Assembly (NCBI GenBank): GCA_947501605.1
Contig: CANMWZ010000006.1
Span: 22,897 to 86,896, forward strand
Origin: Planctomycetota bacterium
GTDB taxonomy: Bacteria; Planctomycetota; UBA1135; UBA2386
Reading direction: 5' to 3'
DNA length: 64,000 nucleotides
Position numbers and translations under genes: made by a program
The notes under the pieces: generated by a model
What the model was told of the DNA's origin: nothing
Database searches by the model: none
What the model saw: the letters and a program-made list of their open reading frames with translations, nothing else
Part shown: positions 12,545-40,238 of the stretch, piece by piece
Position numbering within the stretch: the stretch's first letter is position 1
Layout of the letters: each line of letters starts with the position of its first letter

Positions 12545-12742
12545 AGCTCGTGCGCCGCAGAGATCGGACCAGTTACCGCAGCCGCAGGCAGGATGCGCTC
12601 TGCAACAGGCAGTTAGGCGACGCGAGCAGACAAAGCCGCACCGTCTTTCGCATCCGCGCCAAGGCCGTGACCTGGCCCTGAGTGGCGCGCCGAGCAACGG
12701 GTGAAGGCTCGAATCGCCGCCGATCGCCGACGGCAATCGGCT

Positions 12743-14489: not shown

Positions 14490-14496
14490 GCCGAGC

Positions 14497-15894: not shown

Positions 15895-15896
15895 GG

Positions 15897-16571: not shown

Positions 16572-16582
16572 GTTGGATTTCC

Positions 16583-17005: not shown

Positions 17006-17038
17006 CGTCGTTCTCCAGTCAGATGTGCAGCGCGCAGG

Positions 17039-17755: not shown

Positions 17756-17787
17756 GGTCCTGGTGAGTGGAGATTGTCGCCAGGAGG

Positions 17788-19356: not shown

Positions 19357-19373
19357 GGTCGTTCCTGATCGCC

Positions 19374-20222
19374 TCACAGAATCTCGATGGGCAGCGCAAC
19401 GAAGCTCGCCATCTGCTTGCTCTGATAGACCTTGATCGCGGCCTGCACTGCGACAGCCGCGTCGTTGCGCGGAGTCCACTTCCAACCCTCTGGCGTAGCG
19501 ACACCGACTCCGGCCGCATCGCCCTTGATCGTCACGTAGAAGGCCTGGCCGAGCCCAAGATAGAGGCATGCAACCTCGGCAGTCGAACCGTCGGGGAGCG
19601 AGCGGATCTCACTGGTCACCGTGACCTCTCGATTCCACTTGTTCACGAGGTTCAAGACGCTCAGCACATTGCCGAAGCGGACGCCGAGCGAGAGCTTCTT
19701 CTTGTTCGAGTCGTCACTCTGTGCGGTCGCAAACTGCTGAGTCAGAGGCGCAATCTTCTCACGGATGGGTTCAGGCAATCGAAGCAGCAGCGCCCGCGTC
19801 TGCTCCTCCATCGCAATGATGGCGACGTCCAGCGCCTGCTGCACGACATCGAGCTTCGAGCTCTCTTCGATCAGCGCAGCCTTCTGCCGGTCCGCCGCAG
19901 CGATGCTCGCCTCGGTTTCGACGATGCGCTGCTTTTGCGCGTCGATCGAACGGCGAACGACATCGATACGCTCCAGCACGGCCTCCTTCTCGACTCGCCA
20001 ATCGGTGCGTGCCTTGCTGATCTGCCGGCGCGCCTCGACCCATTTCTCCAACATCGCCCGCGTAGTCTCAGCGCCGGCCGTCACCGGCGCCGGCGCGGTG
20101 CCTGCTGCCGGATCTTGTTGCTGCGCGGATGCGTAACTCGTCGTCGCAACGCTCGCGAACATGGCCACTGCGAGCGCGCGAGAAAGCGCGAACGTGCGGG
20201 GTCGCTTCGTCTCTGGTTTCAT
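19374..20222 (-). CDS. DUF3450-family periplasmic coiled-coil protein, TtpB-like
   Basis: Signal peptide 'ALAVAMFASVATTSYASAQ' and a long coiled coil. C-terminus 'LYLGLGQAFYVT..G..AGVG...GWKW' resembles DUF3450. Sits immediately upstream of the TtpC-like gene, as in TonB2 systems. Confidence 0.7.
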   Translation of the reverse strand: MKPETKRPRTFALSRALAVAMFASVATTSYASAQQQDPAAGTAPAPVTAGAETTRAMLEKWVEARRQISKARTDWRVEKEAVLERIDVVRRSIDAQKQRIVETEASIAAADRQKAALIEESSKLDVVQQALDVAIIAMEEQTRALLLRLPEPIREKIAPLTQQFATAQSDDSNKKKLSLGVRFGNVLSVLNLVNKWNREVTVTSEIRSLPDGSTAEVACLYLGLGQAFYVTIKGDAAGVGVATPEGWKWTPRNDAAVAVQAAIKVYQSKQMASFVALPIEIL

Positions 20223-20266
20223 GTCGTTCGGTAGGTTGTTGGTCGTGGAGTCGAGGCGAGGCCCGG

Positions 20267-23385: not shown

Positions 23386-24627
23386 TCACCAAGGATCGCC
23401 GAGGCCCTTCACGATGGCCTCGATCTTGCCCAGCAACTCTGACCCAGGCTCAAGGCCATGCTTGGCCAGCGACAGACACGTGGCCGAAACATCGTCGGCG
23501 CGCGGCCGCGAGTTCGGGTTGTCGAGTCCGGCTTCGACAGCCCCGCGATAGAGCTCCAGGGCACGATCGCGGTTGCCCATCGCCGCGGCAGCCTCGGCAA
23601 TCGCACGCATTGCCGAAGCGCGATAGATGTCGAGGATTGAAGCGTGGCGTTGGCCGTAGAGCGACTCGGCATGCTCGAGCAGCGATCTGCCGCGTGCGGA
23701 ATCGCCGGCGCGATGCACAACGGCCGCCGCCTGGGCATGCACGAACACCTCATCCTCCGGGTGCCACTTCACGCCCGCAATCAGCACGTCGATCTGGCGC
23801 ACGAGCTCGAGTGCGCGCATGCCGTCCCCGCCGTCCGCCGCGTAACCCGCAATCTCGATCAGGAGCTTCAGTCGCGCGTCGCGCGGCAACTTCGTGTAAC
23901 CGCTGGTGACTCGTTTCTCGAGTTGGTCGCGCTTCTCGGCATCCGGAAAGAACCGCTTGTACAGCTTGCAGCAGGTCTGCAGCGTCACCAGGATCTCGTC
24001 GAAGTTGTCGCCCGCGAACAGCTTGTCGGCCTGCTCGAGCCACGCGGAGAACGCCGCCTCCGGCATCGCCAAGGCTGCGTCCATCTGGATGCCGGCGCCA
24101 TCACTCGATTGGATGGACTTGCTGAACTTGGCGAACTTCTCAGCGTCGCCGAGGAGGAAGTGAGTGCGGGCGATCATCGCGAACACGCGATCTGCGCGCC
24201 ACGCCTGCTCGGTTGGGTCCGCCGCCGCTGCCTTTGCGACGCTTTCGGCAATCGCAAGATGCTGACCCACCTCGTCCATGCGACCAGCCTGTGCGCAATG
24301 ATGCGCAAACTGCGCGTGCGCAAGACCACGACGCCAATCCGGAATCGTGTCGCCGATCTGCAGCGCGAGGTCGGGCATCGCGAGTTCGAAGCAGGCCTCC
24401 ACTACCGCCATTTGACCGCGGCCTCGATTCTTGATGTGTGGCACCAACGGCATCCGCAGGAATGCTTGGTTTGCCAGCTCGAGAAGGTGCTTCTGAGACG
24501 CGCTTGCCTTGCCGGTCGGCGCCGCTGTTTTGGCGGCAGGTGCTGTCGCCGCCGAGCTCTCCTGAGCCAGGACTGAGGCAGTGCCGAAAGCAGCGAAGAA
24601 GACGGACGCACACAGTGCTACGCGCAT
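23386..24627 (-). CDS. Exported alpha-helical repeat protein, function unknown
   Basis: Internal Met gives the signal peptide 'MRVALCASVFFAAFGTASVLAQE'. The rest is helix-rich with TPR/HEAT-like periodicity. I recognise no catalytic motif. Confidence 0.6.
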   Translation of the reverse strand: MRVALCASVFFAAFGTASVLAQESSAATAPAAKTAAPTGKASASQKHLLELANQAFLRMPLVPHIKNRGRGQMAVVEACFELAMPDLALQIGDTIPDWRRGLAHAQFAHHCAQAGRMDEVGQHLAIAESVAKAAAADPTEQAWRADRVFAMIARTHFLLGDAEKFAKFSKSIQSSDGAGIQMDAALAMPEAAFSAWLEQADKLFAGDNFDEILVTLQTCCKLYKRFFPDAEKRDQLEKRVTSGYTKLPRDARLKLLIEIAGYAADGGDGMRALELVRQIDVLIAGVKWHPEDEVFVHAQAAAVVHRAGDSARGRSLLEHAESLYGQRHASILDIYRASAMRAIAEAAAAMGNRDRALELYRGAVEAGLDNPNSRPRADDVSATCLSLAKHGLEPGSELLGKIEAIVKGLGDPW

Positions 24628-24913
24628 GAGACTCCTACGATTCGGATCGAGTGGGAAACGCGACAACCCGGGGATTCCTAGAAGCTGTTTCACGATTGGC
24701 GTGCGAGCGAGGCCGAGCAACGAAGGCAGAGGGCAAGGAGCGGACTCGTAGCGGAATCCGTAGCTCCCGCGGAGAGTCTGCGACGCTGCCATCGGCCGAG
24801 GTGCCGACCGCAGCCGCTAGCGCTTGGTGAAACCACTTCTACGGTGCTCGGCTCGCAACCGCGGAGCTACGCGCTCGGAGCCGCAGGCGATAGTGGCGGA
24901 CATCACCGCAAAC

Positions 24914-24975
24914 GATCAAGGGCGATCGCCTCGCAGCGACCGCCCCTGATCGGATCGTTCCTGAGATGGCTCAGG
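24914..24975 (-). terminator. Two tandem hairpins directly after the stop of the 654-aa secreted protein gene
   Basis: CCTGAG-atgg-CTCAGG (24960-24975) abuts the stop codon. A 16-bp stem spans 24914-24951 (GATCAAGGGCGATCGC / GCGACCGCCCCTGATC); its two mismatches become G-U pairs on the minus-strand RNA. There is no clear U-tract. Confidence 0.45.
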
Positions 24976-26940
24976 TCAGTCGATCGAGACCGACAGAGCG
25001 TTCGACAGCGTCATGTTGCCAAACAGCGTCGGCGCACCAGCCGGATCGAAGGTCGCGGCCTGGAAGTAGAACGCGTAGCCCTGCGGGAAGCCCGTCGGGA
25101 TGCTCAGCGGCAAGGAGGCATTACCGCTACCGTCCGTGAAGACGGCGAAGGTGATGAGGTTGTTGATGAAGTCCGGGATCAGCGTGCCGCCAGCAAACGG
25201 CGTATCAAGGCGACCGCCACCGAAGATCGTGCCACCATTGACCGCGATGATCGACAGCGAGAAGGCCGGGGCCTTCAGCAGCGAGACGTTCCACGTGAGC
25301 GGAGCAAACGCGAGGTGCGTGCCGGTCGCCGACAGCACCGGAGCGCCGTTGGTGCCGACGTTGCTGCCAAAGCCGAGGTCGTGCCAGCCGTTCGTCGGCG
25401 TGTAGCCGTAGGCTTCCGATGCCGTCCAGCCGGCGAGCCAGCTGGCCGCGCCCGGGGCGAAGGCGCCGCGGTACTGGGACGACGTGAAGAAGCCGTCACC
25501 CGTGCTGAAGGCGACGCTCGAGAGCGCGTCATTGGCTGGCGCGGGATTGAGGCCGATGACCGGGGTCATCGTCTGCCCACCGCGGACGACCGACGGGCCA
25601 CGCGTGATGCTCGTGATTGGCGAAGCAACCGCGATCACGTTGTTGTTGGCCACGGCGAAGACACCGCGAGCGTTTGCTTCGGTGTAGGCCGCTGCCAAGT
25701 TGTTGTTGAAGAAGACGCTGTCACTGATCTGGCACAGGTTGCCCGACGACTGCGCGGTGTAGAACAGGGCGGGGTTCAACGGTGCGTTGACCAAGGAGGT
25801 CGCCGAGAACGGCGTCGTCCAGGTCGCGGCCCACGACAGCGTGCCGTTGAAGCCGTAACCAGCACCACCGTCACCGTCGACGTTGTCGAACGACACGACG
25901 CGCTCACCAGCGTCCATGAAAATGCTGTTGCGGAACTGCGCGCGTGCATTGTCGCGCCAGGCCGTCAGGTGGTCGCCCGACGCCGCACCGTTCGGCTGGC
26001 CGATGACCGTCATGTTGTAGAGCGTCGTGGTCGTTACCGGCTGGTAGTCACTCTGCTCAGCGCCATCCATCTCGAAGGCATTGTCGCCGACACCCGAGCC
26101 CTGGGCCGCGTTGACGCTGTAACCCTGGACGACCAAGCCATACTGCGCCTTGCCGCGCCAGCCCTGGTCGACGTCGAAGCTGTCGTCACCGATGTTCCAG
26201 ATGCTGAAGTGGCGCAGATTGACCGTGCCACCCCAGATCTCGATGCCGTCGTCGACGTTGTTCATGATCTCGAGGTAATCGATGTCCGTGCCGCGGCCGA
26301 TGCCGCCCAGAGACAACCCGTTCAACTCGTTGGCGGCACCGATCACCTTGCCGCCGTAGCGGATCGAGAGGTACTTGATCGAACCGCTGTCGTCATCGTC
26401 GTTCGAAGGCAGCAGAACACTGCCACCGTAGTCCGCAAGGCCGCTGCCGCTCGGTGGAGCGAGACCCTCCATCACCGCAAAGTTCGTCGAACCTGGAGCC
26501 GGCGTGTTGGTCAGAATCGCGTTCTCCGACACGTAGCCACGACCCATGACCGTCAGGTTGCCCCATTCGTTGGCCGCTTCGCGCCACGTGCCAGTCTTTG
26601 GGTTGCCACCAACCCAGGTCGCGCGATCGGCGGCCGAGGTCAGGATCACTGGATTGAACTGGTTGCCGTTGACGAAGATTTGCGCGCCACGGCACACCGC
26701 GAGGCTGCCGCCCGATGGTGGCGTGCTCAGGGGGACAGTCGAAGACGCGATGACCGTGCCCGGCTCGATCGTCAAGGTCGCGCCTGGCAGCACGTAGATC
26801 TGGGCCTGCAGGTCATAAACGTTGTTGGCGGTCCAGGTGGTCGAGACCGCGATGTTGGCAGTGACAGGAATCTGCGCCTGGGCGACTGCCGCCAGCGCAA
26901 CAACCGCGCAAGCGGCCTTGATGGTAGAGTTCATGAGCAT
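24976..26940 (-). CDS. Secreted beta-rich protein, function unknown (possible beta-helix core plus a C-terminal ~130-aa module shared with 61618-62598)
   Basis: Internal Met gives the signal peptide 'MLMNSTIKAACAVVALAAVAQAQ'. Motifs 'IDYLEIMNNVDDGIEIWGGTVNLRHFSIWNIGDDSFDVDQGWRG'. The ORF track extends artefactually to 27255. Confidence 0.65.
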   Translation of the reverse strand: MLMNSTIKAACAVVALAAVAQAQIPVTANIAVSTTWTANNVYDLQAQIYVLPGATLTIEPGTVIASSTVPLSTPPSGGSLAVCRGAQIFVNGNQFNPVILTSAADRATWVGGNPKTGTWREAANEWGNLTVMGRGYVSENAILTNTPAPGSTNFAVMEGLAPPSGSGLADYGGSVLLPSNDDDDSGSIKYLSIRYGGKVIGAANELNGLSLGGIGRGTDIDYLEIMNNVDDGIEIWGGTVNLRHFSIWNIGDDSFDVDQGWRGKAQYGLVVQGYSVNAAQGSGVGDNAFEMDGAEQSDYQPVTTTTLYNMTVIGQPNGAASGDHLTAWRDNARAQFRNSIFMDAGERVVSFDNVDGDGGAGYGFNGTLSWAATWTTPFSATSLVNAPLNPALFYTAQSSGNLCQISDSVFFNNNLAAAYTEANARGVFAVANNNVIAVASPITSITRGPSVVRGGQTMTPVIGLNPAPANDALSSVAFSTGDGFFTSSQYRGAFAPGAASWLAGWTASEAYGYTPTNGWHDLGFGSNVGTNGAPVLSATGTHLAFAPLTWNVSLLKAPAFSLSIIAVNGGTIFGGGRLDTPFAGGTLIPDFINNLITFAVFTDGSGNASLPLSIPTGFPQGYAFYFQAATFDPAGAPTLFGNMTLSNALSVSID

Positions 26941-26944
26941 TGGG

Positions 26945-26979
26945 CTTCGGAGTTTGAGTTGCTTTCGGAGTTTGAGTTG
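26945..26979. repeat. 17/18-nt tandem direct repeat in the 5' leader of the 654-aa secreted protein gene
   Basis: 'cttcggagtttgagttg' (26945-26961) is followed by 'ctttcggagtttgagttg' (26962-26979). On the coding strand this is an A/C-rich, G-poor 'CAACTCAAACTCCGAA(A)G' x2 ending 4 nt before the ATG. Confidence 0.7.
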
Positions 26980-27092
26980 GTTGGCGGACGGTGCGAGGCT
27001 GTCCTCGCACCATGGACACCCTAGGGATCTGTGTTTGTTTGCAGTGAAGGCTGCAAGGAGCCTTCGCGAGTGTCCGTACGCTCGGACGAAGC

Positions 27093-28217
27093 TCAGTTGG
27101 CGCCTTGGATGGGCTGGCCATTGACCGTGCCCGACGTCAACACGCCAGCAATGCCGGCGACCTGGACGGCAATCGGGCCGACGCCGCGAGCCAAGGTCAT
27201 CACCACGGCCGCAGACTGTCGCGCTCCGTTCGGAGCACGCGCTTCCATGCTCCAATCCAACTGGAACACGTCGTCGAAGCGGCCGACTGCGGTTCGGAGC
27301 GGTGGCACGCCCGTCGGCAACACGCGCAGGATGGTGGTCGCCGAAGTCGTCGGGGCCGCAGTTCCGTACGGCTGGTAGAGCAGCGCCGGAAGAACGCTCA
27401 GCATCGGCTGACCCAGCGTCACTTCCGCCGGCAGGAACAGGCTCAGGTCATGGATCTCCTGGTAGTCCGTGCCACCATTGGTGGAGTACTCACCGAGGAC
27501 ATCGGTCGGGCCATAGGCAAAGGGCGGCGAATCAATGCGGCGCAGGTAGAGACCGAGATTCTGGTCGGGCGTCTCGATGAGCAGGCGAAAGACCGTCACG
27601 CCTTGCAGGTTGGGCTCGGCCGCCGAGGCCGTCAGCGTGATGGTGATGCCGTTGCTGAAGTTCCAGCGGTTGCCGGTCTGCAGCGGCAAGAACCCCGGCG
27701 TCGAACCAAAGACACCCTGCGGGTTGGTGGTCACCCACCCGAGCAGTCGTTGCGCCACCCAGTAGACGGCCGGGAAGTTGAGCGTCTGGAATCGGACCTT
27801 GCCGGTATCCGGCTCGGTAACCCCAGCGATCTCGATCACGCGACCATCTTGCTGGCGAGCCAGGACGACCGCAGCTCGCCCCTGCCGTCCAGCCTCGAAC
27901 GGCAACGTGACCGCGACCGGCAGCGCGAATTCCCGCGGACTCGGGCCGAGCAGAATGCCGCGACTGAGGTTGCTGAAACCCGGCTGGATCTGTGCAAAGC
28001 TGGTCGCAACCGTGAGTTGCACCGGCGCGGTAGTCGCGCCGGGCGGAACCGCGATTTCGAGGCCTGCGAGTTCCCCGGTGGTCAACTGCAGCACGCCGCC
28101 GGCGACGCCGACCCGTTGGCCAGCGACCACCTGAGCGGCACCACCGCCGCCGCCACCGCCAGAACAGGCAGCGAGCAGGCAGAGGGAGAACAAGAACACG
28201 TTGCGGCACTGGCCCAT
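27093..28217 (-). CDS. Lipoprotein, function unknown
   Basis: 'MGQCRNVFLFSLCLLAACSGGGGGGG' has a lipobox 'LAAC' followed by a Gly linker. The remainder is beta-rich with no recognisable motif. Confidence 0.6.
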   Translation of the reverse strand: MGQCRNVFLFSLCLLAACSGGGGGGGAAQVVAGQRVGVAGGVLQLTTGELAGLEIAVPPGATTAPVQLTVATSFAQIQPGFSNLSRGILLGPSPREFALPVAVTLPFEAGRQGRAAVVLARQQDGRVIEIAGVTEPDTGKVRFQTLNFPAVYWVAQRLLGWVTTNPQGVFGSTPGFLPLQTGNRWNFSNGITITLTASAAEPNLQGVTVFRLLIETPDQNLGLYLRRIDSPPFAYGPTDVLGEYSTNGGTDYQEIHDLSLFLPAEVTLGQPMLSVLPALLYQPYGTAAPTTSATTILRVLPTGVPPLRTAVGRFDDVFQLDWSMEARAPNGARQSAAVVMTLARGVGPIAVQVAGIAGVLTSGTVNGQPIQGAN

Positions 28218-28325
28218 GCGGGAATGCTGGTGCGTCCCCGGCAAGCGACCGTGAGTGTCAGATTAAGGATCGCTACAAGCCCATTCGGCCGCACCGCATT
28301 GGGAAGGCCCCCTCACGCAAGACCG

Positions 28326-28364: not shown

Positions 28365-31300
28365 TCATCGGTTCGGCGCATCCAGCTCGCGCAAGACAGC
28401 GCCGTCGGTCTCGCTCAGCACCAGCAGTGCGTAGCGCTGCGCGCCCGAGCTGCCGGATTCGCTGACTGAGACGTAATCGAAGCGGCCCCGAAGGTCGGTG
28501 TAGCCATCCTTGTGGAAGCGCACCGAGCCATCGGCGCCACGCGCATAGCACTTCACGTAGACCTTGGCGAGCGGCGCGCCTTTCTGCGACCGCACTTCCA
28601 CCTGCCCGTACGAGCCGATGGCCTGCACCACCATCGTGCTGGCGAGGCTCTGCGCGCGGCGCACGAGGCCGCCGCCGCGAACCTCGATGACGACATTGCC
28701 TTGCGCGAACTCGGCCGGCAGCGGGACGGTTGTCTGCTGGGCGCCCTTGCCGAGCTCGACCGCGTCCTTGCGCATCGGTTCGACCCACCCGACGGCGGCG
28801 AGGCCCTGTTGCTGGAACGGGCTGTTGCTGAACGCGAACTCGACGTCGAGCCGGTGGTAGCGCACTTCGCACACCTCGAGATTGCGATGACGGATCGCGA
28901 TCACGCCACCTTCGACCACGACATCGAGTTGCGGCTCGGTCGCCGCGAGCTGCGTCTGCTGCGCGTCCCGCAGTTCCTCGTCGGTGGCCACGACGGCCGC
29001 GCCGTCGATCTCGTCCGCCTGCTGCAACACCGAGCGGAACAGCGTGCGCCAACGGTCCACCGGATGATCCTTGTGCACGCTCGCGATACTGCGCGCCGCG
29101 GCGACGTCAGCGCGGAAGAACGCGAGGTAAGCCGCCAAGTAGTCGTACTGCAGCGCAGTCGTCAACGACTCGCGGTCGATGCGCGCGAACGCGGCGAGCG
29201 CATCCTCGGTGCGACCTTGGACCAAGTGGTAGTAGGTCACCTCGGCCCAGTCGGCCGCCGCGAGTTGCGGCCGTCGACATAGGATCGCGAGGCACTGTTG
29301 CCACTGCTGTGTGACATCGCGGTTCTGGATGCCCTGCCACGCACCGATGCGGTGCGCGCGCGCGTGCACCAGCGGATCGAACTCGAGGTGCTCGTAGGCG
29401 CGTTCGACGAGCGGTTCGACCGTGAGCAGCGGCGAACGCAACACGTAGCCGATCGATTGCCCGAGGTCCGCACGGCGAGCCAGGTACTCACGCGCCACCG
29501 GCAGATCGCCGTGCCTCACTCCGAACGACCACACCGTGTCGTCGTATTGGAGTTGCGAACGCAGCAGCTCCACCACCTTGCCGAAGAACACACGGTCGCG
29601 CAGACGCCAAGCGATGCGCGACAGGTCGACCCGCCGAAGGTTGTGGGTTCGCAGATACTCGAGAACGGCATCGGCCTCTGCCATCTGCGACACGTGGTCC
29701 CACGAAGCGGAGTCGACGACGGTCGGCGTCGCGACGACGTGACGGACCGCGGCCTCGGCGGCGCCGACGAACACGCCGTCGGCACTGACCTGCGCGGGGT
29801 AGTGGGCGAAGTCACCGGGCAGCGGGAAGTAGAACGAGAACTCGAAGGTCGTCGTCGCGAACGCGTCGAGCTGGAGCGGCACGCTGTGCGTGGCGAAGCC
29901 GCCTTGCAGCGGCAACGCACCGGCCGGGATCTGGATCAGCAGCGACAACGTGCGCGGCGCCTCGGTCGGGTTCGTCAGCACGATCTGACTGCCGTAGACC
30001 ACGCCGGCGGTGAACTCACTCGTCACGGACTTCTGGCGACGGACGTTGCCGTCATAGCTGTAACGATCGTCGAGGCGGAAACAGGCCTGACGGATCAACA
30101 CCGGATCGATCCCGTCCTTCTGCACGACCGGCAGGATCTCGCTGCGCGCGAGCAACAGCGGGCCCTCGGTCCGCAGCGTCGCCGCCGCACCATCGCGCAC
30201 CGAGCTCGGTTGCTTGCCCTCGAACGGCAGATCGAGCACCGCCAGCGCGAACATCGCCTCGGTGAAGCTGCCGCGCGCTTCGGCGACGTTCGGCGACACG
30301 AACGGTGTTCCCTGCGACGCCGCGAAGTCGCGCCAGAACGAGTTGGCACGGATGCGATCGGCCGTCTCGTCCGTGCGCTGCATCTTCCAGTAGTAGCTCT
30401 CGGCGAAGATGCGCGTCGGATCGAGGTCGCGGAAGAAGCTGCGCTGCACCTTGCGACGCTCCCGGTCTTGCTCGTCATCCTCCTTCGCGAGTTCCGCGTC
30501 CTTGTCGGTCAACTCGGTGAGCAAGCCACCAGCCTGCCCCTGCTCGACCGACGCGGACAGATCCTGCTTGGCCTTCTCGGCGCTCTCCGGCTTTGGCGCC
30601 GGCGCGCCCGGGTCAGCGGCACGTCGTCCGGTCGCAGGACCGGCAGGGCCGGCACTGGCGGGCCCACCTGCACTCGGCTCGGCCGCGGACAGCTTCCGTT
30701 CGAGTCGATCCACTACGTCGAGCCCGAGCAGGGTTTTGGCATCGCCTTCCGCGCCGGCATCGAGATCGGCGGTGCGCAGGGCCGCGCGGAACACGAGCTT
30801 CTTGCCCTCGAGGTCGATGGGCTCGAGCTCGCCGAGTTCGCGCGCGTGGCGAACGAGTGCCTCGCGTTGGCCCGGCAATCGCTGCAGCAGAAGGATGCGC
30901 TCGACGAGGTTGAGCGTCGCGAAGCGCGCGGGCTCGAGGTAGCTGGCAACGTCCTCACCGAGCATCCAGTCGTCGAGGAACTCGCGATGGGCTTTGTTCG
31001 CGAGATACGGCTTCAACACCGAATCGAAGAAGGCGCGGTCCTTGAAGTAGAGGAACAGGTGCAGCTCGTGGCACGCGTGCGTGCGGTAGAGCTGCAGTCG
31101 CTCGTCCGCGGTCAGCGACGGCCAGCGCGTGACAAAGGCGAAGTCGGCGAGGTCGGGGCCCTGAACCAACGTGCCCAGCAGTCGATGCACCTCTTGGAGC
31201 GAAGTGAACGGCCGCAACTTCGTCGTCGCGACATCGGGAACGCGGGTCTCGCTGCCGGCGGCGACGAACTCGATGCGCTGCTGCTCGGCCAGGTGCTGAG

Positions 31301-34300
31301 CCGCGTCGAAGGCCTTCGGCAGGCGAAGATCGCGCGGATCGAGGGCCTTCAGCGGCATCGCCACGCTGCGGTAGTCGAAGTCGTCGCCGTCGACGGCGAT
31401 CACGTGCAGCAGCTGGCCCGCGCCGAGGTCCTTGCGCGGGATGCGCAGCGTGCCGTTCGCATCGGGGCGAAGGTTGGCGAGCAGCGACGTGGCGCCGTCG
31501 AGGAAGTCGATCGTGGCGTAAGCGTTCGGGTCCGAACCCGTTGCGCGCATGGAGTTGGCCGTCTCGGCTGGCGGCGCCTCGGCCCTGCCGCCGCGTCGGC
31601 GGCCATAGCCACCGCCGGCACCACCCCCGAACCGGCCGGTGTCCGAGGCTCGATCGATCGCCCACGGATTCAGCAGCAGGCTCGGCCGCTGCAGCATGTT
31701 GCCGGGGAACTTGGTCGCGTAGCGACGCTCGAACACGTAGCGAAGTTCGTCCCCCACGCGGCGCTCGGCGGCGTAGTCCGAGAAGCGCGGTTCGAGCAGC
31801 ACTCGAGACGCGCCGCCATAGACGGGCGGCAACGCCAGAGCGAACGCATCGAAGGCCGGCAAGTAGCGCGTCGCGAACGCGTGCACGCGGGCGGAGGCAC
31901 CGGCGTTGCCGAGCCGGACCGACACGGTGTCCGCATCGGCGTCGAGTCGGAGGATCGCGAGCGGCGTCTGGCCGCGCAGCAACAACGCGCGCGTCGCACC
32001 GAGAACGAAGCGACCTTGCTCGGTACCGTTCGTCACGGCAACGTCGATCTCGACGTCGAAGCGCGGCAATCGCAGCACGTAGTCACCGGCCGGCACAGCG
32101 CGCAGTTCGAGCCAACCCTCGGTGAGAGCCAGGAGCGCGGAGGCATCGCGCACCGGTCGATCGTCACGGCGCTCGACCAATGTCGCGATCGAGGCGTCGA
32201 GTTGCGTTCCATTCTCTGGATACGCGACGCGAAGTGTTGCGCCGGCGATTCCCTGCAGGCTCTTCGGCCATGCTCGCCGTTCGACCAGGAACCACGAGGA
32301 TCCGGCGACCGACGACGAGCCGAGCAGGCGGACCTCGTCGATGCCCTCGAGCGCGCCGAGTGCGACCTTGCCTGCGGCATCCGATTGCAGAACAACCTGC
32401 ACTTGGTCGCGGAAGTCGCAGTGGCGCAGCGAGAGTTCGACTGTCCGCGTCGCCAGCGGCTCGCCGGTGCGCCCGCGCACTTCGACGAACCAACCGTCCT
32501 GTTCCCGACCGAGGATCGAGGCCGCAACTTCCGCGGTCGCCTCGATGCCGTTCACGACGAACGTGCCGCCGTCTTGCTGCACGTCGACCGTCTGCCCCGT
32601 GCTCGCCTTCTGGTAGCGGGCGCGCATGGCGACCGACAAGCTCACGAGCCCGCGCGGAACCTCGAAGTCGTGCACGTACTCGCCGTTCGAGTCGAAAGCC
32701 GCGACCGCGATCGTCTGCATCGACTGGGCGCCGTCGCGCAAGCGGGCCGTGATCACGAACTCCGGCTCCTGCAGCAGCGCGAGCGAGACCGGCACACCGC
32801 CGACTTCGAACCTCGGGCGCAGCAGCAATCGACTGGGTTCCCCGCCGCGCAGGGACTCGCGATCGACGAACGCCGCGAGTCGCAGCTCGGCCGACTCGAC
32901 CGCGTGGGCGAAGCGATGCAGCGTCGCGACGGCACCGCGCCGCACCACGATCGTCCGCTGAGCAGGCTCGGGCGAGAACGGAACGGCGAGTTCGCCGCGG
33001 TCGTCGGCGACGATCTCGCGGCCGGCACAGAACGCGACGGCATCGCGCACGGGTTGCCCGTTCTCGTCGAACACCGAGAACACGTGGCCCGCGGCGCCGA
33101 TGCGCGACAGCACATCGAGGCGGCCCTTCTGCACCACCGCGCGGCTCGACATGCCGTTGCCGACGAACTCGACGACGTAGGTGCCGGGCTGGTTGAGCGA
33201 GTCGGGTTGGAACTGCCGCCGCACGCGCCGCAACGGTGGCTCGGAGTACTGCACGACCTGCTCTTCGTTGGCGACGACGCCGTCGAGGTCGATCGAGGCA
33301 TCGACGTCTTTGCCGACCGCCTTCAAGTAGGCATACGCGTCGATCCGGTAGACCTTGACCAGCAAGGTCGGCACGTTCTTGACGTCGAGCTCGATCGTGA
33401 CCTTCGCATCCGCCGCGAAGTGCTGCTGCGCCCGCTTTGCGAACGAGAGTTCGACGCGTTGCACCAGCTGCTCGTAGTACGACGGATCCGCAAGCATCGA
33501 GTACCAGCGCTCCATGTCACCTTGACCGAGCAGGATCTTGGTCTCGGCGAACACGCGACGCAGCCAATCCTCGCGCACATGCTCGGTCCACGGAGCAATC
33601 GTGTCCGCAGTCGCGAAGATCTGTTCGAAGCACGCACGCACGAGCTCTTCGTCGCTGCCGACCGCGTCGAGACCGGTGCTGCTGCGGAAACCGTCGTCGA
33701 CGATATCCTGCCCGCGACTCTTGCGAATCCACTCGGGATTGGCGTAGCCGGCACGCCGTGGCAATCGCAGATACGAACCGAGGCGGTCGGTGTCGACCTT
33801 TCCAAGTTCGAGATCGTGCCGCAACCGGTGGAACAGCACATGGCTCTTGAGGCTGTTGTGCACGGGCGACAACCGCTCCACGAAGCCAAGGAGCGCGTCG
33901 AGGTAGGCTTCGCGCGCGCGCACGTCGACCTGCCAAGCGACATCGGCGTTCGGCCGCAGTCGACGCACGTACTCGTCGACATATCGACGGTCATCGCGCA
34001 AGTTGGGGACCTGCTGCAGCACCTCGTCGAGCTGCGACTGCAACAAGAACTCGTGCACCCGCAGAGAGCCGAAGCCGCCGCTGTCGCGCAACCGCAGTTC
34101 GCGCGCAACGAGCAGCGCGAGACCTGGCACGTCGGAACGCTGAAGACGATTCAAGAGCTCGCGCAGCAGGTTGTCCGGCACCTTCGTCGCCAACAATGCA
34201 GCGAGACCGCGATCCGTCAGACCGTCGAGCGAGTTTGAGTGCAGCGCGAGCGCGCGCTGCAGGAGTTGCGCCGCCGCGATCGAGCGATTGTCGAACTGAG

Positions 34301-34709
34301 TCGGCAACTCAGGCTGCTGACCCGGGACCTGCCGCTGCTGGTCAAAGGACAGTCCCAATCGCTGCTGCAGCCATGCATAGGTGCCCTTCTCATCGCGTTC
34401 GTAGGAGAGCAGTGCTTGGCGCACTTCGATCTCCTCGACCCGCGACGTACGCCCGTGCCTTTCAACCCATGCAGCGAGGAGCACCGGAACAGCATCGAGC
34501 GCCCCTTCGTGCTGCTTCTGCAAGCACTGATAGTAGTAAGCGTCCTCCGTCCCCGGGATCAGCTGCGCGAGCGCCGCTGCGCGATCGGGCGCAAGCGCGA
34601 ACGTCTCGGCGAATCCTCCCGGCGGCGTCTGCGCCAACAGCGCCGAGGACATGGCCAGGAGGGTCAGCGGAAACACAACACACGACAGCCGCAGGAGTGG
34701 ATTGCGCAT
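28365..34709 (-). CDS. Giant (2114 aa) exported protein, function unknown
   Basis: Uninterrupted 6.3-kb ORF. Signal peptide 'MRNPLLRLSCVVFPLTLLAMSSALLAQ', helical N-terminal third, repeated beta-rich modules, and a Gly/Pro/Ala plus acidic linker near nt 30440-30700. C-terminus 'VYVKCYARGADGSVRFHKDGYTDLRGRFDYVSVS'. Confidence 0.8.
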   Translation of the reverse strand: MRNPLLRLSCVVFPLTLLAMSSALLAQTPPGGFAETFALAPDRAAALAQLIPGTEDAYYYQCLQKQHEGALDAVPVLLAAWVERHGRTSRVEEIEVRQALLSYERDEKGTYAWLQQRLGLSFDQQRQVPGQQPELPTQFDNRSIAAAQLLQRALALHSNSLDGLTDRGLAALLATKVPDNLLRELLNRLQRSDVPGLALLVARELRLRDSGGFGSLRVHEFLLQSQLDEVLQQVPNLRDDRRYVDEYVRRLRPNADVAWQVDVRAREAYLDALLGFVERLSPVHNSLKSHVLFHRLRHDLELGKVDTDRLGSYLRLPRRAGYANPEWIRKSRGQDIVDDGFRSSTGLDAVGSDEELVRACFEQIFATADTIAPWTEHVREDWLRRVFAETKILLGQGDMERWYSMLADPSYYEQLVQRVELSFAKRAQQHFAADAKVTIELDVKNVPTLLVKVYRIDAYAYLKAVGKDVDASIDLDGVVANEEQVVQYSEPPLRRVRRQFQPDSLNQPGTYVVEFVGNGMSSRAVVQKGRLDVLSRIGAAGHVFSVFDENGQPVRDAVAFCAGREIVADDRGELAVPFSPEPAQRTIVVRRGAVATLHRFAHAVESAELRLAAFVDRESLRGGEPSRLLLRPRFEVGGVPVSLALLQEPEFVITARLRDGAQSMQTIAVAAFDSNGEYVHDFEVPRGLVSLSVAMRARYQKASTGQTVDVQQDGGTFVVNGIEATAEVAASILGREQDGWFVEVRGRTGEPLATRTVELSLRHCDFRDQVQVVLQSDAAGKVALGALEGIDEVRLLGSSSVAGSSWFLVERRAWPKSLQGIAGATLRVAYPENGTQLDASIATLVERRDDRPVRDASALLALTEGWLELRAVPAGDYVLRLPRFDVEIDVAVTNGTEQGRFVLGATRALLLRGQTPLAILRLDADADTVSVRLGNAGASARVHAFATRYLPAFDAFALALPPVYGGASRVLLEPRFSDYAAERRVGDELRYVFERRYATKFPGNMLQRPSLLLNPWAIDRASDTGRFGGGAGGGYGRRRGGRAEAPPAETANSMRATGSDPNAYATIDFLDGATSLLANLRPDANGTLRIPRKDLGAGQLLHVIAVDGDDFDYRSVAMPLKALDPRDLRLPKAFDAAQHLAEQQRIEFVAAGSETRVPDVATTKLRPFTSLQEVHRLLGTLVQGPDLADFAFVTRWPSLTADERLQLYRTHACHELHLFLYFKDRAFFDSVLKPYLANKAHREFLDDWMLGEDVASYLEPARFATLNLVERILLLQRLPGQREALVRHARELGELEPIDLEGKKLVFRAALRTADLDAGAEGDAKTLLGLDVVDRLERKLSAAEPSAGGPASAGPAGPATGRRAADPGAPAPKPESAEKAKQDLSASVEQGQAGGLLTELTDKDAELAKEDDEQDRERRKVQRSFFRDLDPTRIFAESYYWKMQRTDETADRIRANSFWRDFAASQGTPFVSPNVAEARGSFTEAMFALAVLDLPFEGKQPSSVRDGAAATLRTEGPLLLARSEILPVVQKDGIDPVLIRQACFRLDDRYSYDGNVRRQKSVTSEFTAGVVYGSQIVLTNPTEAPRTLSLLIQIPAGALPLQGGFATHSVPLQLDAFATTTFEFSFYFPLPGDFAHYPAQVSADGVFVGAAEAAVRHVVATPTVVDSASWDHVSQMAEADAVLEYLRTHNLRRVDLSRIAWRLRDRVFFGKVVELLRSQLQYDDTVWSFGVRHGDLPVAREYLARRADLGQSIGYVLRSPLLTVEPLVERAYEHLEFDPLVHARAHRIGAWQGIQNRDVTQQWQQCLAILCRRPQLAAADWAEVTYYHLVQGRTEDALAAFARIDRESLTTALQYDYLAAYLAFFRADVAAARSIASVHKDHPVDRWRTLFRSVLQQADEIDGAAVVATDEELRDAQQTQLAATEPQLDVVVEGGVIAIRHRNLEVCEVRYHRLDVEFAFSNSPFQQQGLAAVGWVEPMRKDAVELGKGAQQTTVPLPAEFAQGNVVIEVRGGGLVRRAQSLASTMVVQAIGSYGQVEVRSQKGAPLAKVYVKCYARGADGSVRFHKDGYTDLRGRFDYVSVSESGSSGAQRYALLVLSETDGAVLRELDAPNR

Positions 34710-35188: not shown

Positions 35189-37165
35189 TCAGCGGGGAGT
35201 CGGCACCGCGCCAGCGTCGCGCGGCGTCTGCAGCGGGGCGAAGAAGCCCCAGATCGCGACCGTCGCGTCCCACGCGACCGGTTCATCGGCGCCGAGGTAG
35301 TTGCCGCGCGTGCCGCCCGGCCAAGCGTGGCCACCGCCGCCGATCGTGACGACGCAAACGGGCAGGGTACGTTCATCGGCCTGCCAGGTCTCGATGCGCA
35401 CGCCGCCATCGACTGTGGTCTCGGGTTCGCCGGTGAGCCCGTTGCGCGTGCGATAGTACTTGGCTGCGTCCGCAACCGCGGCGTCAACGCGACGGCCAGC
35501 GCGGCCCATGCTGCGCTCGGGCTTGCCGCCGTCGTAGCGAACGTGAAGATCCGCAGTGCCGTGCACGATCATCACGGCGACTGGGGAGGTTGCATCGGTA
35601 TCGGTGAAGTTCATCGCACCGGACACCGGCGCGATGCCAGCGAACAGGTCTGCAGCCTCGCGCGCCAAGCGATGACACATCATGCCGCCGTTGCTCATGC
35701 CCGTTGCAAACACTCGATCTGGATCGACGGCGATCCGCTGCTTCAGGTCAGCGAGAACTGCTCGCACGAACTCGGTGTCGTCGACGTTCTTGTCTCCGGC
35801 GTAGACAGGGATGCCACCGCTGTTCCAGGTCAAGAGCTTGTTGCGCAACAGACCCGTTCCATCGGGATAGACGGCAACGAAACCGCGGCGATCAGCGAGC
35901 TTGGAGAAGCCAGTCGACTCCTCCACTTGCGCGCTGTTGCCACCGCCACCGTGGAACACCATTACGACTGGGAGCTTCGCCGCCGACGACCCGCCGGGCG
36001 GGACGTGCAGGCGATAACTGCGAGTTCGACCGCCGCACTCGAGTCGGACCAGTTCGTCGGTGCCGCTGATGGCGGGCGACTTGACGAACGCGCGCGCCGC
36101 TGCCTGCACTGCACCGATGCGCGGCAGGACGCGCGCGACACGATCTTGGATGGCGAGCACACCCCACAAGCCTTGATCCCGATCTACCCACGGCAAGAAC
36201 CCGAACGCGCCTGGATCACTGCCTCGCACCACCCCTGCTTGCGGCTCCTGAAGCCAAGTGGCGAGACCGTAGGCGAGATCGCCTTCAAAACCCGGGAAAC
36301 GAACCAGTGTTCGAGCAGTCTGCGACCGGAACATGCGATCCAGCGATTCCGGCTTCAGGACACGCACGCCGCGAAGTTCGCCACCATTGCCGAGCATCGC
36401 ACAGAATCGCTCATAGTCGCGCAGCGACGACACTGCTCCCCCTGCGATCCAAGGAACAGTCGCTGCGCCAGCATCGCTGCCGACCGGCGACAGCCGACCA
36501 AACGCGGTGTTCATCATGCCCAGGCGGTCGGCCACGCGATCGCGAAACAAGGTGTGCCAGTTGGTCTTGGTGGCGCGCACCGCGACGCACGCGGCCACTT
36601 GGAACCCCACACCGCTGTAGACGAAGTCGATGCCGGGCTCATACTGCAGCGGCTCCTCGGCAAGCTCGCGAGCCACGCCGTCCATGTCGAGATCGCGATC
36701 GAGTGCGGTTCGCGATTGCGCGGCGAAGCCCGCGGTGCACGACAGACACTGACTCAGCGTCAGGTACTTCTTGTCCGGGCGATCGAACTCTTTCAGGTAG
36801 CGCGACACCGGCAGCTCGATATCGAGCAACCCATCATCGTGCAGCGAGAGGATGACCGCGGTCGCGAGCCACTTGCTGGCCGAAGCAATCGGCAGTGTCT
36901 GGTCAGCGGAGAAGTCACCGACGGTGCCAAGGTGGAGCAACCTGTCCTTGAGACCGACCGCCAGCCCCGCACCCTCGACGCCGATCGGCCGGGTCAGGTG
37001 GGCGAGCGCTTCCGTCAGTTCCTTCGCTGACGGAGCGGTGCGTTCGGGGGGCGTCGCCAACTCTTGCGCCGAGGGGTCCTGGCCGAGGACCTGCGTCGCC
37101 GCACCGAGAAGCAGCACCAGGTTGAGGGAGATCCGCAGTGGGAAGCCGGCAAGCCGCATGTTCAT
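35189..37165 (-). CDS. Exported fusion: beta-lactamase-fold serine hydrolase (N) + PHB-depolymerase-family esterase (LpqC-like, C)
   Basis: Signal peptide 'MNMRLAGFPLRISLNLVLLLGAATQVLGQ'. N-domain has SxxK 'IASASKWLA' and 'VYSGVGF'. C-domain has 'RSYRLHVPPG..LPVVMVFHGGGGN...AVYPDG...WNSGG' and a nucleophile elbow 'GMSNGGMM'. Confidence 0.8.
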   Translation of the reverse strand: MNMRLAGFPLRISLNLVLLLGAATQVLGQDPSAQELATPPERTAPSAKELTEALAHLTRPIGVEGAGLAVGLKDRLLHLGTVGDFSADQTLPIASASKWLATAVILSLHDDGLLDIELPVSRYLKEFDRPDKKYLTLSQCLSCTAGFAAQSRTALDRDLDMDGVARELAEEPLQYEPGIDFVYSGVGFQVAACVAVRATKTNWHTLFRDRVADRLGMMNTAFGRLSPVGSDAGAATVPWIAGGAVSSLRDYERFCAMLGNGGELRGVRVLKPESLDRMFRSQTARTLVRFPGFEGDLAYGLATWLQEPQAGVVRGSDPGAFGFLPWVDRDQGLWGVLAIQDRVARVLPRIGAVQAAARAFVKSPAISGTDELVRLECGGRTRSYRLHVPPGGSSAAKLPVVMVFHGGGGNSAQVEESTGFSKLADRRGFVAVYPDGTGLLRNKLLTWNSGGIPVYAGDKNVDDTEFVRAVLADLKQRIAVDPDRVFATGMSNGGMMCHRLAREAADLFAGIAPVSGAMNFTDTDATSPVAVMIVHGTADLHVRYDGGKPERSMGRAGRRVDAAVADAAKYYRTRNGLTGEPETTVDGGVRIETWQADERTLPVCVVTIGGGGHAWPGGTRGNYLGADEPVAWDATVAIWGFFAPLQTPRDAGAVPTPR

Positions 37166-37444
37166 CGTGAGCGTGTGATAGGGAACTCGAGTCTCGATCT
37201 GGACCGGAGCAGTAGCTTCTCGGAGCGCCTGCGGCTGGTCGGTCCCGCGCACAGGCCAATTGTGCACTCACTTCTATCGACCGGCGGCAAACGAACCTTC
37301 GCACCGACGTTCGGCGCGGCGACGAGAACGCACAGTTCGCGGCGTACCAACAATCCGACGAGCAGCACGCTGTGGCGCGCCTTGCTCGCCGCCGGACGGC
37401 AAAGGCACTGGTGCCTGAGCCGCCAATCCGACCGAGTCTGCTAC

Positions 37445-38255: not shown

Positions 38256-40238
38256 ATGACTACCGCACAGCGTTCCGTCGCAACGCGCCGACTCCTCGCG
38301 TTCGCGGCTGCCCTTGCTCCACTTGCAGCCCAAGAGCCGCAAACCCCGGCCCCGGCCAGCGCCACTGCACCGGCGGCGGCCACCGCTGTCGGTCTTCCGA
38401 GTTTTCTGCTGCCTGTCCCTGCCGGCAAAGTCCAGATGGGCATGACGATCGAGCAGCTCGTTGGAGCTGCGAGCCAGGCCATCAATCCCCGCCGCCCCGA
38501 CCAAGCCGCCAAGGAAGTCGAGAAGCTGGCGCTGCGTCTCCGACAGACGGCCTCACAGCTTGGCATGGAGACACGCGACGTGCCGGCGTTCCTGCTCGGC
38601 AACTCGCCGGTCACCAACAAGCAGTGGAAGGCCTACATGGAGAGGATGGCGGCCAACGGGGTCAAGGTGCGCCCGCCATTCCATTGGTGGCGCTACGGTC
38701 GCAAGGATGACTACGACGCCAAGCTCGTGGACATCAACACCGAGTTCAAGGGAGATGGCAAGCTGGGCCCGGTCCTCTACTGGGAACGACACGGGGAGAC
38801 GCTGCCTTGGGACCTGAAAGATGAGAACGGCAAACCCATCGACGACCTGCCCGTCGTCTACATCAGTCGCAAGGACGCGGTGCGATTCGCCGAATGGATC
38901 GGTATGCGTCTCCCGACCGAAGAAGAATGGACGCGCGCAGCTCGCGGCGACGGCACCAATGTTTGGCCCTGGGGCAACAACAAAGAACTGGGCGACAAGT
39001 ATCAGGAGAAGGTCCTTGAGCTAATGAAGCTGGCGAACAACCGAGACCGCCACCTGAACCCGGTCGGCTCCGTCGCGTTTGGCACTGGCCCGTTCGGCCA
39101 CGTTGACATGAGCGGCCAAGTCTGGGAGTTCGTTGGCGGCAATGGCTTCGGCCCGATCACCGGTCAGAAGGTGTTCGGCGAGGAGTGGAAGAAGACTCAG
39201 AAGGACAAACTCGGCATGCTGCTGAAGGATGTGCCGGTGTGGAAGAGCGAGTTGTTCGTCGTCAAGGGCGGCTCCTTCCTCTCGTCGGGTGACCCCATCC
39301 AGCTGCAGATCGACTGCCGAGTGGGCGTTCCGAACGACGAGGTTATCGAGGGCCTCGGCATGCGCCTCGCGAAGAGCCTGAAGCCGGGTTTCGACCTGCT
39401 GATTTCGCTCGTCACCAGCGACTACAACATGGACCTGTTCGAGACCGGCGTGGCCGACCAGAAGGTCGACTTCGCTGCGCAAACAGGCATCGAGCGCTAC
39501 GTGCTCGACGCGGCCGGCTTCCCGACCGAGTATCACGCCGTATCGATGGCGCCCGTCGACTGGCTGACCAGCGAGAAGAACGGCACGTTGACGAAGCTAC
39601 TGGAGCGGAGCCAGACGACGCCGTTGTTGCTGGGCACGCTGGCTGTGACCGACCCACTGGCAGTACCAAAGATGCCCGCGGGGCTCTACTCCGTCGCTTT
39701 CCGTGCTGAGGGTGTGCCAAAGGAACTCAAGGAAGCCATCAAGCTCGGCTACAAAGAGGTCCAGGCAGAGATCAAGCGAAAGGAGCGTGCGGCCAAGGGT
39801 GGCGAAGCGGAGGCCGCCGCAGAACCGGAACTCAAGAAGACCGACTGGCGCATTGTGCTCACGCGCTACGGCCTCACGGACAAGGACCTGGAGCCAAAGG
39901 GCGCCGACACCGACCTGAAAATCGTCCGCCTCGGAACGCTCGAAGTGCCTGTGGAGCACAACACATTCGTGTTCTTCGACAACAAGGGCAAGTGGATGGC
40001 TGCGTGCAAGGCCCAGGATCTGGTCGCCGGCACCCTCTCCGCCGGCGAGGTGCTTTTCGGCACCGGCAAGGACGGAAAGACCGAGCACGCCAAGGTCGAG
40101 TTGAAGTTCCGGGTGCCCCTTCTCAAGGACCAGAAGAAGGCGGTCGAATACAAGCTCGACCTGCTCCTGGAGCAGGGCCCGCCGGCCGCTGGCGAGACCT
40201 GGCGTCTCCCGGTCGCTCCGCCCGCGGGAGACAAGTGA
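38256..40238 (+). CDS. Exported formylglycine-generating-enzyme (SUMF1/FGE-sulfatase) domain protein with a long C-terminal extension
   Basis: Signal peptide 'LLAFAAALAPLAAQE'. FGE-type motifs 'NSPVTNKQWKAYM', 'ISRKDAVRFAEWIGMRLPTEEEWTRAARG', 'GHVDMSGQVWEFV', 'VVKGGSF'. About 300 aa of unassigned C-terminus. Confidence 0.8.
   Translation: MTTAQRSVATRRLLAFAAALAPLAAQEPQTPAPASATAPAAATAVGLPSFLLPVPAGKVQMGMTIEQLVGAASQAINPRRPDQAAKEVEKLALRLRQTASQLGMETRDVPAFLLGNSPVTNKQWKAYMERMAANGVKVRPPFHWWRYGRKDDYDAKLVDINTEFKGDGKLGPVLYWERHGETLPWDLKDENGKPIDDLPVVYISRKDAVRFAEWIGMRLPTEEEWTRAARGDGTNVWPWGNNKELGDKYQEKVLELMKLANNRDRHLNPVGSVAFGTGPFGHVDMSGQVWEFVGGNGFGPITGQKVFGEEWKKTQKDKLGMLLKDVPVWKSELFVVKGGSFLSSGDPIQLQIDCRVGVPNDEVIEGLGMRLAKSLKPGFDLLISLVTSDYNMDLFETGVADQKVDFAAQTGIERYVLDAAGFPTEYHAVSMAPVDWLTSEKNGTLTKLLERSQTTPLLLGTLAVTDPLAVPKMPAGLYSVAFRAEGVPKELKEAIKLGYKEVQAEIKRKERAAKGGEAEAAAEPELKKTDWRIVLTRYGLTDKDLEPKGADTDLKIVRLGTLEVPVEHNTFVFFDNKGKWMAACKAQDLVAGTLSAGEVLFGTGKDGKTEHAKVELKFRVPLLKDQKKAVEYKLDLLLEQGPPAAGETWRLPVAPPAGDK

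Follow-up and report, generated by a model that had tools for sequence, protein, structure and literature searches.

A 2114-residue export-type protein of a Planctomycetota bacterium as a likely subunit of the CAGE family of shell-forming proteins

The stretch of DNA analyzed here, referred to as the window, comprises 64,000 nucleotides (nt) of a Planctomycetota bacterium (assembly GCA_947501605.1, contig CANMWZ010000006.1, positions 22,897 to 86,896 of the forward strand). The gene under study was a single open reading frame (ORF) that runs from an ATG at window position 34709 down to position 28365 on the minus strand and encodes a protein of 2114 amino acids (aa) with an estimated mass of approximately 233 kDa. 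An earlier reading of the letters alone, here called the original prediction, had reported an uninterrupted 6.3-kb ORF with a signal peptide and had considered its product the core of something undescribed. The coordinates were right, the strand, which had been left unstated, is minus, and the N-terminus is indeed signal-peptide-like. The family, however, has been described. On the basis of homology and predicted architecture, its product can be assigned with high confidence to the bacterial subunits of CAGE, a family reported by McCafferty et al. (bioRxiv 10.1101/2025.09.22.677704; PMC12485934) that already included signal-peptide-bearing members from Planctomycetota.

The ATG is the earliest start possible downstream of an in-frame stop. 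The GC content at the three codon positions was 0.72, 0.45 and 0.84, a pattern typical of coding frames in this genome of 65% GC, so the frame was taken to be coding; this bias, the signal-peptide-like N-terminus, the full-length homologs and the structural models described below establish the ORF as a genuine gene. An antisense ORF of 1646 aa on the plus strand (29298-34238) was not among the frames whose GC by codon position was of the coding type and was read as a high-GC shadow ORF. Gaps of 479 nt upstream and 120 nt downstream flank the gene, and scans of the surrounding DNA with promoter and terminator consensus sequences gave nothing beyond the shuffled expectation. The N-terminus resembles a Sec signal peptide (MRNPLLRLSCVVFPLTLLAMSSALLA/Q), the signal region of the family consensus finishes with ...A-Q-G, and 111 of 125 full-length homologs had a signal-peptide-like N-terminus. 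The window protein was judged by reading its sequence and the relatives by a simple hydrophobicity heuristic.

A large protein collection contained 502 homologs. The 120 listed were nearly all full length (2050-2150 aa) and 39-56% identical to the window protein, and all were annotated as hypothetical and were without Pfam domains; the nearest known relative is approximately 56% identical. When one genome per species was scanned, relatives were encoded in at least 593 species-level genomes from Planctomycetota (Gemmataceae, Pirellulaceae, Planctomycetaceae, Phycisphaerae, Brocadiae and Ca. Uabimicrobium), Verrucomicrobiota, Kiritimatiellia, Lentisphaerota, Hydrogenedentota, Ozemobacter/Riflebacteria and Myxococcota. 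Culturable carriers include Rohdeia mirabilis Pla163 (Pla163_25370), Limnoglobus roseus (WP_149110087.1) and a Gemmata species. Searches of the window protein against Pfam and NCBIfam, and with phmmer against the PDB sequences, found nothing significant, in agreement with the earlier statement that RTX, cadherin and autotransporter signatures were lacking. The only Pfam hint in the window protein was bMG3 (E = 0.044), which scored 14 bits where the cut-off is 34.9. A Pfam search of 23 members of the family gave matches that were all sub-threshold, CarboxypepD_reg in four (best E 5.5e-5) and bMG3 in three.

CAGE was defined by Tetrahymena CAGE1-3 (I7MLD7, I7M9Z0 and I7MGF4) and Dictyostelium AbpF (XP_635154.1), previously uncharacterised proteins of approximately 1900-2400 aa obtained from ciliary-matrix and soluble cell fractions (bioRxiv 10.1101/2025.09.22.677704). 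According to the same preprint, the assembly is a D2-symmetric homotetrameric hollow shell of approximately 1 MDa that measures about 22 x 16 x 12 nm and has slit-like openings and a cavity of about 600 nm3; its coordinates are cited as PDB 11KS and 11KT. CAGE1 has 15 domains, of which 1, 2, 11, 13 and 14 are helical and the others beta. The describers reported no Pfam or SCOP match, found by Foldseek that the sandwiches lie near alpha-2-macroglobulin (A2M), and drew a parallel between CAGE and A2M as molecular containers. Of the 3,521 homologs that they listed, over two thirds were bacterial, mostly from Planctomycetota and Verrucomicrobiota, and most bacterial members had a 21-22-residue signal peptide by DeepTMHMM, while the eukaryotic ones were generally without secretion signals. 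The original prediction had named a described family with a known role as the outcome that would tell against it; the family proved to be a described one, but its biological role was given as unknown by its describers.

Several observations place the window protein in this family, 1) along its whole length it shares 43-47% identity (E = 0) with ten homologs (P0101, P0116, P0044, P0023, P0024, P0041, P0045, P0053, P0077 and P0114), and these ten together with P0126, which clusters with P0044 at 90% identity, represent 11 accessions, all 11 of which, including WP_145188693.1 from the isolate Rohdeia mirabilis Pla163, are present in Table S2 of McCafferty et al. as BLASTP matches of D. discoideum XP_635154.1 with E values of 0 to 1e-141, 25-29% identity and 69-97% coverage, 2) the domain boundaries in our structural models track the published CAGE1 boundaries, compared by eye, with offsets of about 25-100 residues, 3) a small second sandwich, a stretch left unassigned behind the central helical domain and a helical-then-beta C-terminus are shared with the CAGE1 map, the unassigned stretch of Tetrahymena CAGE1 after domain 11 (approximately aa 1414-1496) being comparable to the variable loop of the window protein, and 4) the phyletic spread of the relatives matches the published distribution. 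Sequence and fold searches of the PDB returned no CAGE-like chain, presumably because 11KS and 11KT were not yet in the copies searched. The family, its bacterial distribution and its signal peptides are already published, and the window protein is an additional member.

Multiple copies occur in some genomes. Three CAGE-family genes (>2080, 2110 and 2107 aa) lie head to tail in positions 1-16324 of locus L002, which is part of a 7.06 Mb contig of a Planctomycetota metagenome-assembled genome (MAG; JADKAF010000001.1), a bacterial parallel to the three Tetrahymena paralogs. In Ca. Uabimicrobium amorphum there are two copies that are not linked to each other (L067 and L069).

The structure of the window protein was predicted with AlphaFold2 (AF2) in two halves, each from an alignment of 36 maximally diverse homologs. 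The model of the N-terminal half (aa 27-1016) had a mean predicted local distance difference test score (pLDDT) of 86.5 and a predicted template modelling score (pTM) of 0.78; the values for the C-terminal half (aa 1050-2114) were 76.6 and 0.58. The models contained eleven beta-sandwich domains, and helical domains made up approximately 40% of the protein (Table 1). A helical N-terminal part had been foreseen by the original prediction, and helical it is, although in the model it ends near aa 420 rather than 480. The beta-rich segment that had been singled out (GTYVVEFVGNG...) falls at aa 509-533 in the first beta-sandwich. The linker that passes from Gly/Pro/Ala to Asp/Glu/Lys was located at aa ~1346-1420 (nt ~30450-30674), within or beside a stretch of about 85 residues (aa ~1316-1401) where the pLDDT of the C-terminal half model was below 50, and the C-terminal motif that had been quoted (aa 2050-2083) turned out to be the most conserved part of the family.

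Conservation was calculated from 90 full-length sequences from homologous loci that are 34-57% identical to the window protein. At least 97% conservation across several phyla was found at 137 positions, which were densest in the last beta-sandwich, where 20% of the positions are near-invariant, and in the compact helical domain, which has 14 such positions. The compact helical domain carries the A-[C/S]-H-E-L motif, in which E1215 was present in all 90 homologs, H1214 in 89 and C1213 in 68, the remaining 22 having Ser at the latter position. No zincin motif (HExxH) is present. The variable loop (about aa 1318-1420) was gap-rich and had no conserved positions.

Table 1. Parts of the CAGE-family gene and the genes downstream of it, in window positions
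Feature	Position	Strand	Basis
Complete CAGE-family gene (2114 aa + stop)	28365..34709	-	ORF, translation, third-position GC 0.84, homologs
Signal-peptide-like N-terminus, aa 1-26 (MRNPLLR, hydrophobic core, ...ALLA/Q)	34632..34709	-	sequence, consensus, heuristic
N-terminal all-helical region, aa 27-419 (CAGE1 domains 1 and 2)	33453..34631	-	AF2, pLDDT mostly 85-96
Six consecutive Ig/macroglobulin-like beta-sandwiches, aa 420-1010 (CAGE1 domains 3-8)	31680..33452	-	AF2, Foldseek
Gly/Arg-rich flexible linker, aa 1011-1058 (GRFGGGAGGGYGRRRGG...)	31536..31679	-	low pLDDT, 21% gaps among homologs
Beta-sandwich domain 7, aa 1059-1170	31200..31535	-	AF2; weak bMG3 match (E = 0.044) falls here
Compact helical domain, aa 1171-1317 (part of CAGE1 domain 11)	30759..31199	-	pLDDT 85-95
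Near-invariant A-[C/S]-H-E-L motif, aa 1212-1216, in compact helical domain	31062..31076	-	alignment of 90 homologs
Disordered hypervariable loop, aa 1318-1401, Gly/Pro/Ala-rich into Asp/Glu/Lys-rich	30507..30758	-	pLDDT <50, 39% gaps
Long helix and small alpha/beta segment, aa 1402-1500	30210..30506	-	AF2; 10 near-invariant positions
Beta-sandwich domains 8-9, aa 1501-1665 (CAGE1 domain 12)	29715..30209	-	AF2; motifs VVTNPT, LLQIPxG, YFPxxG
C-terminal helical region, aa 1666-1925 (CAGE1 domains 13-14)	28935..29714	-	AF2, 14 helices; 21 near-invariant positions
Terminal pair of beta-sandwiches, aa 1926-2114 (CAGE1 domain 15), the second CarboxypepD_reg-like	28368..28934	-	AF2
F-H-K-D-G-Y-T-D-L-R-G-R-F-D-Y motif, aa 2065-2079, in last sandwich	28473..28517	-	strongest family conservation
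Three intervening genes between CAGE gene and receptor	23386-28244	-	found in L005 and L008 only
383-aa protein	within 23386-28244	-	borderline ZU5 match, E = 2.5e-4
ORF of ~640-759 aa	within 23386-28244	-	L005 ortholog (639 aa) matches Beta_helix_4
468-aa protein	within 23386-28244	-	no library match
Oar-like TonB-dependent receptor	20267-23209	-	CarboxypepD_reg + Plug
DUF3450	19374-20222	-	
Long MotA/ExbB	17788-19569	-	
ExbB	17039-17755	-	
ExbD	16583-17005	-	
TonB	15897-16571	-	
TPR protein	14497-15978	-	

Fold comparisons were made with Foldseek, using the whole half models rather than single domains as queries. The top 50 PDB matches of the N-terminal half were all C3/C4/C5, A2M, A2ML1, CD109 or TEP1, with E values of 5e-11 to 3e-8 over approximately 600-650 columns, the length of MG1-MG6. 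In the alignment of the first six sandwiches to MG1-MG6 chains, E was ~1e-10 and the TM-scores were only about 0.1. As a control, the same model was compared with a viral library, where it matched generic Big-1/FN3 arrays at E 3.5e-9. Since generic viral Ig arrays score nearly as well, the match to A2M is non-specific, and the safe reading of the models is that the sandwich array belongs to the Ig/macroglobulin-like fold class; the fold class appears clear, while homology to A2M is unproven. The C-terminal half matched the C3b alpha chain and enzymes of glycoside hydrolase family 2 (GH2) equally weakly (E ~1e-5), with root-mean-square deviations (rmsd) above 30 Å, and these ambiguous multi-sandwich matches were discarded as evidence for either family.

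The viral matches, which were Big-1/FN3 arrays and phage surface proteins, would also suit a surface or secreted adhesin composed of tandem Ig-like domains, as would the size of the protein, its export-type N-terminus and its eleven beta-sandwiches. We consider an adhesin highly improbable. The length is unusually constant for such a protein (2050-2150 aa in nearly all members), and the 34-57% identity and 137 near-invariant positions extend across phyla. Self-BLAST found no internal repeats in the window protein, and Pfam and NCBIfam recognised no anchor, sorting or autotransporter domain. Moreover, the pTM of the N-terminal half points to a fixed, compact arrangement, not to beads on a string, and the eukaryotic homologs form closed cages.

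The GH2 matches of the C-terminal half, to an exo-chitosanase and beta-galactosidases, raise in turn the idea of a large glycoside hydrolase-like or carbohydrate-binding enzyme, a class in which Planctomycetes are rich. The underlying alignments, however, had rmsd values of 33-38 Å and TM-scores of about 0.1 and probably rest on accessory sandwiches. The C-terminal model showed no strand/helix alternation of the TIM-barrel type, and no glycoside hydrolase family of Pfam matched the window protein or the 23 members searched, so that an enzyme of this kind is scarcely credible. Both the adhesin and the glycosidase are made unlikely by the fixed length, the strong conservation, the lack of repeats and anchors and the lack of a catalytic barrel.

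The resemblance to A2M raises a question about function that is compatible with membership in CAGE. The protein could be a thioester-less, bacterial A2M-like protease trap of the periplasm, in which the loop at aa 1318-1401 would act as bait and its cleavage would change the shape of the shell and trap the protease. Apart from the uniform list of PDB matches to the six-sandwich array and the weak bMG3 matches in three of the 23 members, this idea draws on the long disordered loop in the middle of the protein, which varies in both sequence and length, on the export-type N-terminus and on the comparison with A2M made by McCafferty et al. themselves. We nevertheless regard it as unlikely. The Pfam domains of the A2M family were all below threshold in the window protein and in the 23 members. 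A profile of 30 homologs searched against the PDB sequences found no A2M chain, its sole match being a spurious one to histone H5 in the low-complexity loop, and hhalign gave a probability of 0.2% for the family profile against the E. coli YfhM sequence. The fold match is unspecific, as the viral control indicates, no CUB/TED arrangement, such as the MG7-CUB-TED-CUB-MG8 module that follows the MG1-MG6 ring in A2M proteins, was recognisable in the half models, and the C-terminal half fits the C3b alpha chain no better than GH2. PBP1c-type and Mag-type genes are the partners of YfhM and MagD; none was found near the CAGE gene. A protease trap would also have no obvious role in the ciliary-matrix and soluble fractions that yielded the eukaryotic CAGE proteins, which generally have no secretion signals.

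The thioester itself is not conserved. The original prediction had seen no thioester motif, which holds for the family, but the window protein does contain a look-alike of the C-[GL]-E-Q motif, CFEQ at aa 360-363 (window 33621-33632, minus strand). Among the 90 homologs this site has Cys in 18 and both Cys and Gln in five, Tyr...His being found in most homologs, and CLEQ occupies the same position in 11 of 125 relatives. The site lies in the N-terminal helical region and not in a TED-like position, and CFEQ was rejected as a thioester and considered a chance resemblance.

A broader version of the A2M proposal is that bacterial CAGE is a thioester-less relative of the macroglobulin and complement proteins, whose sandwich array would share its ancestry with MG1-MG6, whose loop would serve as bait or gate and which would capture foreign proteins that get into the periplasm, such as proteases or toxins. 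This version seems rather unlikely too, slightly more so than the trap as such. The A2M-like trap stays a minority view because the tests at the level of sequence failed, the fold match is unspecific and eukaryotic CAGE proteins generally have no secretion signals and come from ciliary-matrix and soluble fractions. A weaker variant supposes, for this lineage, a functional coupling between the cage and the neighbouring Oar-like TonB-dependent transporter considered below.

The explanation that we favour, and consider very probable, is that the window protein is a CAGE subunit, which would be exported and form a tetrameric shell that may serve as a container. By analogy with the eukaryotic structures solved by electron cryomicroscopy, four copies would assemble after Sec export into a hollow shell of approximately 0.93 MDa (4 x ~233 kDa), which would be located in the periplasm of the host organism. 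Less firmly, the shell probably functions as a container in which macromolecules are taken up or sequestered. The variable, disordered loops may be situated at or near the openings of the shell, and the near-invariant residues of [C/S]-H-E-L and KDGYTD-RG-FDY may serve in assembly or in contacts with cargo or ligands. A conventional role as an enzyme or an adhesin seems less likely than that of a container.

Four points weigh against this explanation, 1) the assignment to CAGE is reached through transitive homology and predicted architecture, 2) the tetramer, the periplasmic site and the container function of the bacterial protein are extrapolations from the eukaryotic assemblies, 3) the global confidence of the C-terminal half model is just moderate (pTM 0.58), and 4) conservation over the full length, at 137 positions in several phyla, could reflect an undiscovered catalytic activity.

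To compare the surroundings of the gene, 12 of its neighbours in the window were searched for in 87 loci with tblastn, and 3506 flanking ORFs were clustered all against all. This neighbour survey, which the original prediction had proposed along with the phyletic one, revealed no family-wide gene partner of CAGE, the most frequent neighbour family being present in at most 11 of the 87 loci. A stand-alone gene without a conserved partner fits a homo-oligomer. In Rohdeia mirabilis Pla163, the 7-Mb MAG with the gene triplet, a Phycisphaerae MAG and others, the neighbours of the CAGE gene were unrelated.

In the window, positions 14497-23209 on the minus strand hold a complete energy-transduction cluster behind an Oar-like receptor (Table 1). 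The gene order of this cluster is that of the Vibrio TonB2/Ttp type of system, and the receptor resembles Myxococcus Oar. The position of the CAGE gene upstream of what was called a dedicated receptor and motor had been an argument for a common system in the original prediction. In such a dedicated system the protein would be the core and would act together with the TonB-dependent receptor and ExbB/ExbD/TonB encoded downstream, for example as the periplasmic partner or the cargo of the Oar-like transporter. The receptor, DUF3450, MotA/ExbB, ExbB, ExbD, TonB and TPR genes do lie downstream on the same strand, and their order is kept in two other loci. That argument did not survive the comparison of loci, and we now consider such a system very unlikely. 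Three genes intervene between the CAGE gene and the receptor, and the CAGE gene is bounded by the gaps on either side given above. The linkage is kept in only two of the 87 loci, L005 and L008, which are merely the nearest relatives (55-57% identical); no genes of the TonB cluster were found near the CAGE gene in the other 85. Finally, eukaryotes carry CAGE without any TonB system.

Other genes of the window and of related loci were as follows. Directly upstream of the CAGE gene on the minus strand (35189-37267) is a fusion of a beta-lactamase-fold serine hydrolase with an alpha/beta-hydrolase of the esterase/polyhydroxybutyrate-depolymerase type, an ortholog of which also adjoins the CAGE gene in L005. 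A plus-strand gene (38256-40238) specifies a protein of 660 aa that contains a formylglycine-generating enzyme-like (FGE-sulfatase) domain. The FGE-sulfatase domain also occurs in L006 (positions 1-6276), where two large genes lying side by side combine it with TIR and NACHT domains, as might be expected of proteins of defence or signalling. Farther along the window are a multihaem cytochrome c-like protein with paired CXXCH matches (Cytochrome_C7; 51708-53687, plus strand), a 779-aa protein with CarboxypepD_reg repeats (55730-58069, minus strand) and valyl-tRNA synthetase (57974-61390).

Very few protein shells of megadalton size have been discovered in recent times, and CAGE, which is one of them, occurs in thousands of bacteria and many unicellular eukaryotes. 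Experiments have so far been confined to two eukaryotes, although bacterial, exported proteins make up more than two thirds of the known members. For the bacterial proteins, the present analysis adds the lack of a conserved partner over 87 loci, a tandem triplication in at least one genome and a set of near-invariant residues that marks two hot spots, the [C/S]-H-E-L motif and the sandwich that carries KDGYTD-RG-FDY. It also adds that the whole six-sandwich array, and not just single domains, aligns with MG1-MG6 chains, together with a control that shows this alignment to be non-specific. If the A2M-like trap were nonetheless true, it would provide the first mechanism for the CAGE family, the eukaryotic members included, and an evolutionary link to proteins of innate immunity. 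More generally, large orphan proteins merit checking against the recent literature in addition to domain libraries.

The known system closest to the window protein is thus CAGE itself. The two have in common a length of approximately 2100-2400 aa, the order of helical and sandwich domains, the lack of Pfam domains, the A2M-like sandwiches, the bacterial distribution and the bacterial signal peptide. They differ in that the window protein is bacterial and looks exported, whereas the complexes studied came from eukaryotic ciliary-matrix and soluble fractions; judged from its relatives, its identity to AbpF is expected to be about 25-30%. The tetramer was seen in the eukaryotic complexes, whereas the bacterial members are known here by sequence and models, and the window gene adjoins a TonB-type cluster, which is probably incidental.

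The A2M/C3 superfamily, including YfhM/ECAM and the thioester-less YfaS/MagD type, resembles the window protein in its long array of macroglobulin-like sandwiches and variable loop in the middle of the protein, and its members are likewise large and, as predicted for the window protein, periplasmic and able to form cage-like assemblies. Some bacterial A2Ms are also without the thioester (PMC5764988). The window family nevertheless has no sequence-profile similarity to the superfamily, its thioester look-alike is not conserved, and a CUB-TED-RBD module was not recognisable. The window protein has a 400-aa N-terminal helical region and two more helical domains that are absent from A2Ms, and it has neither a lipobox nor pbpC or mag-type neighbours. 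The Big-1/FN3 surface proteins, of the invasin/intimin type and the phage decoration type, are similar as strings of sandwiches, with Foldseek E values down to about 1e-8 in the viral library, but the window protein differs from them in having no repeats or anchor, a fixed and conserved architecture and a helical content of approximately 40%.

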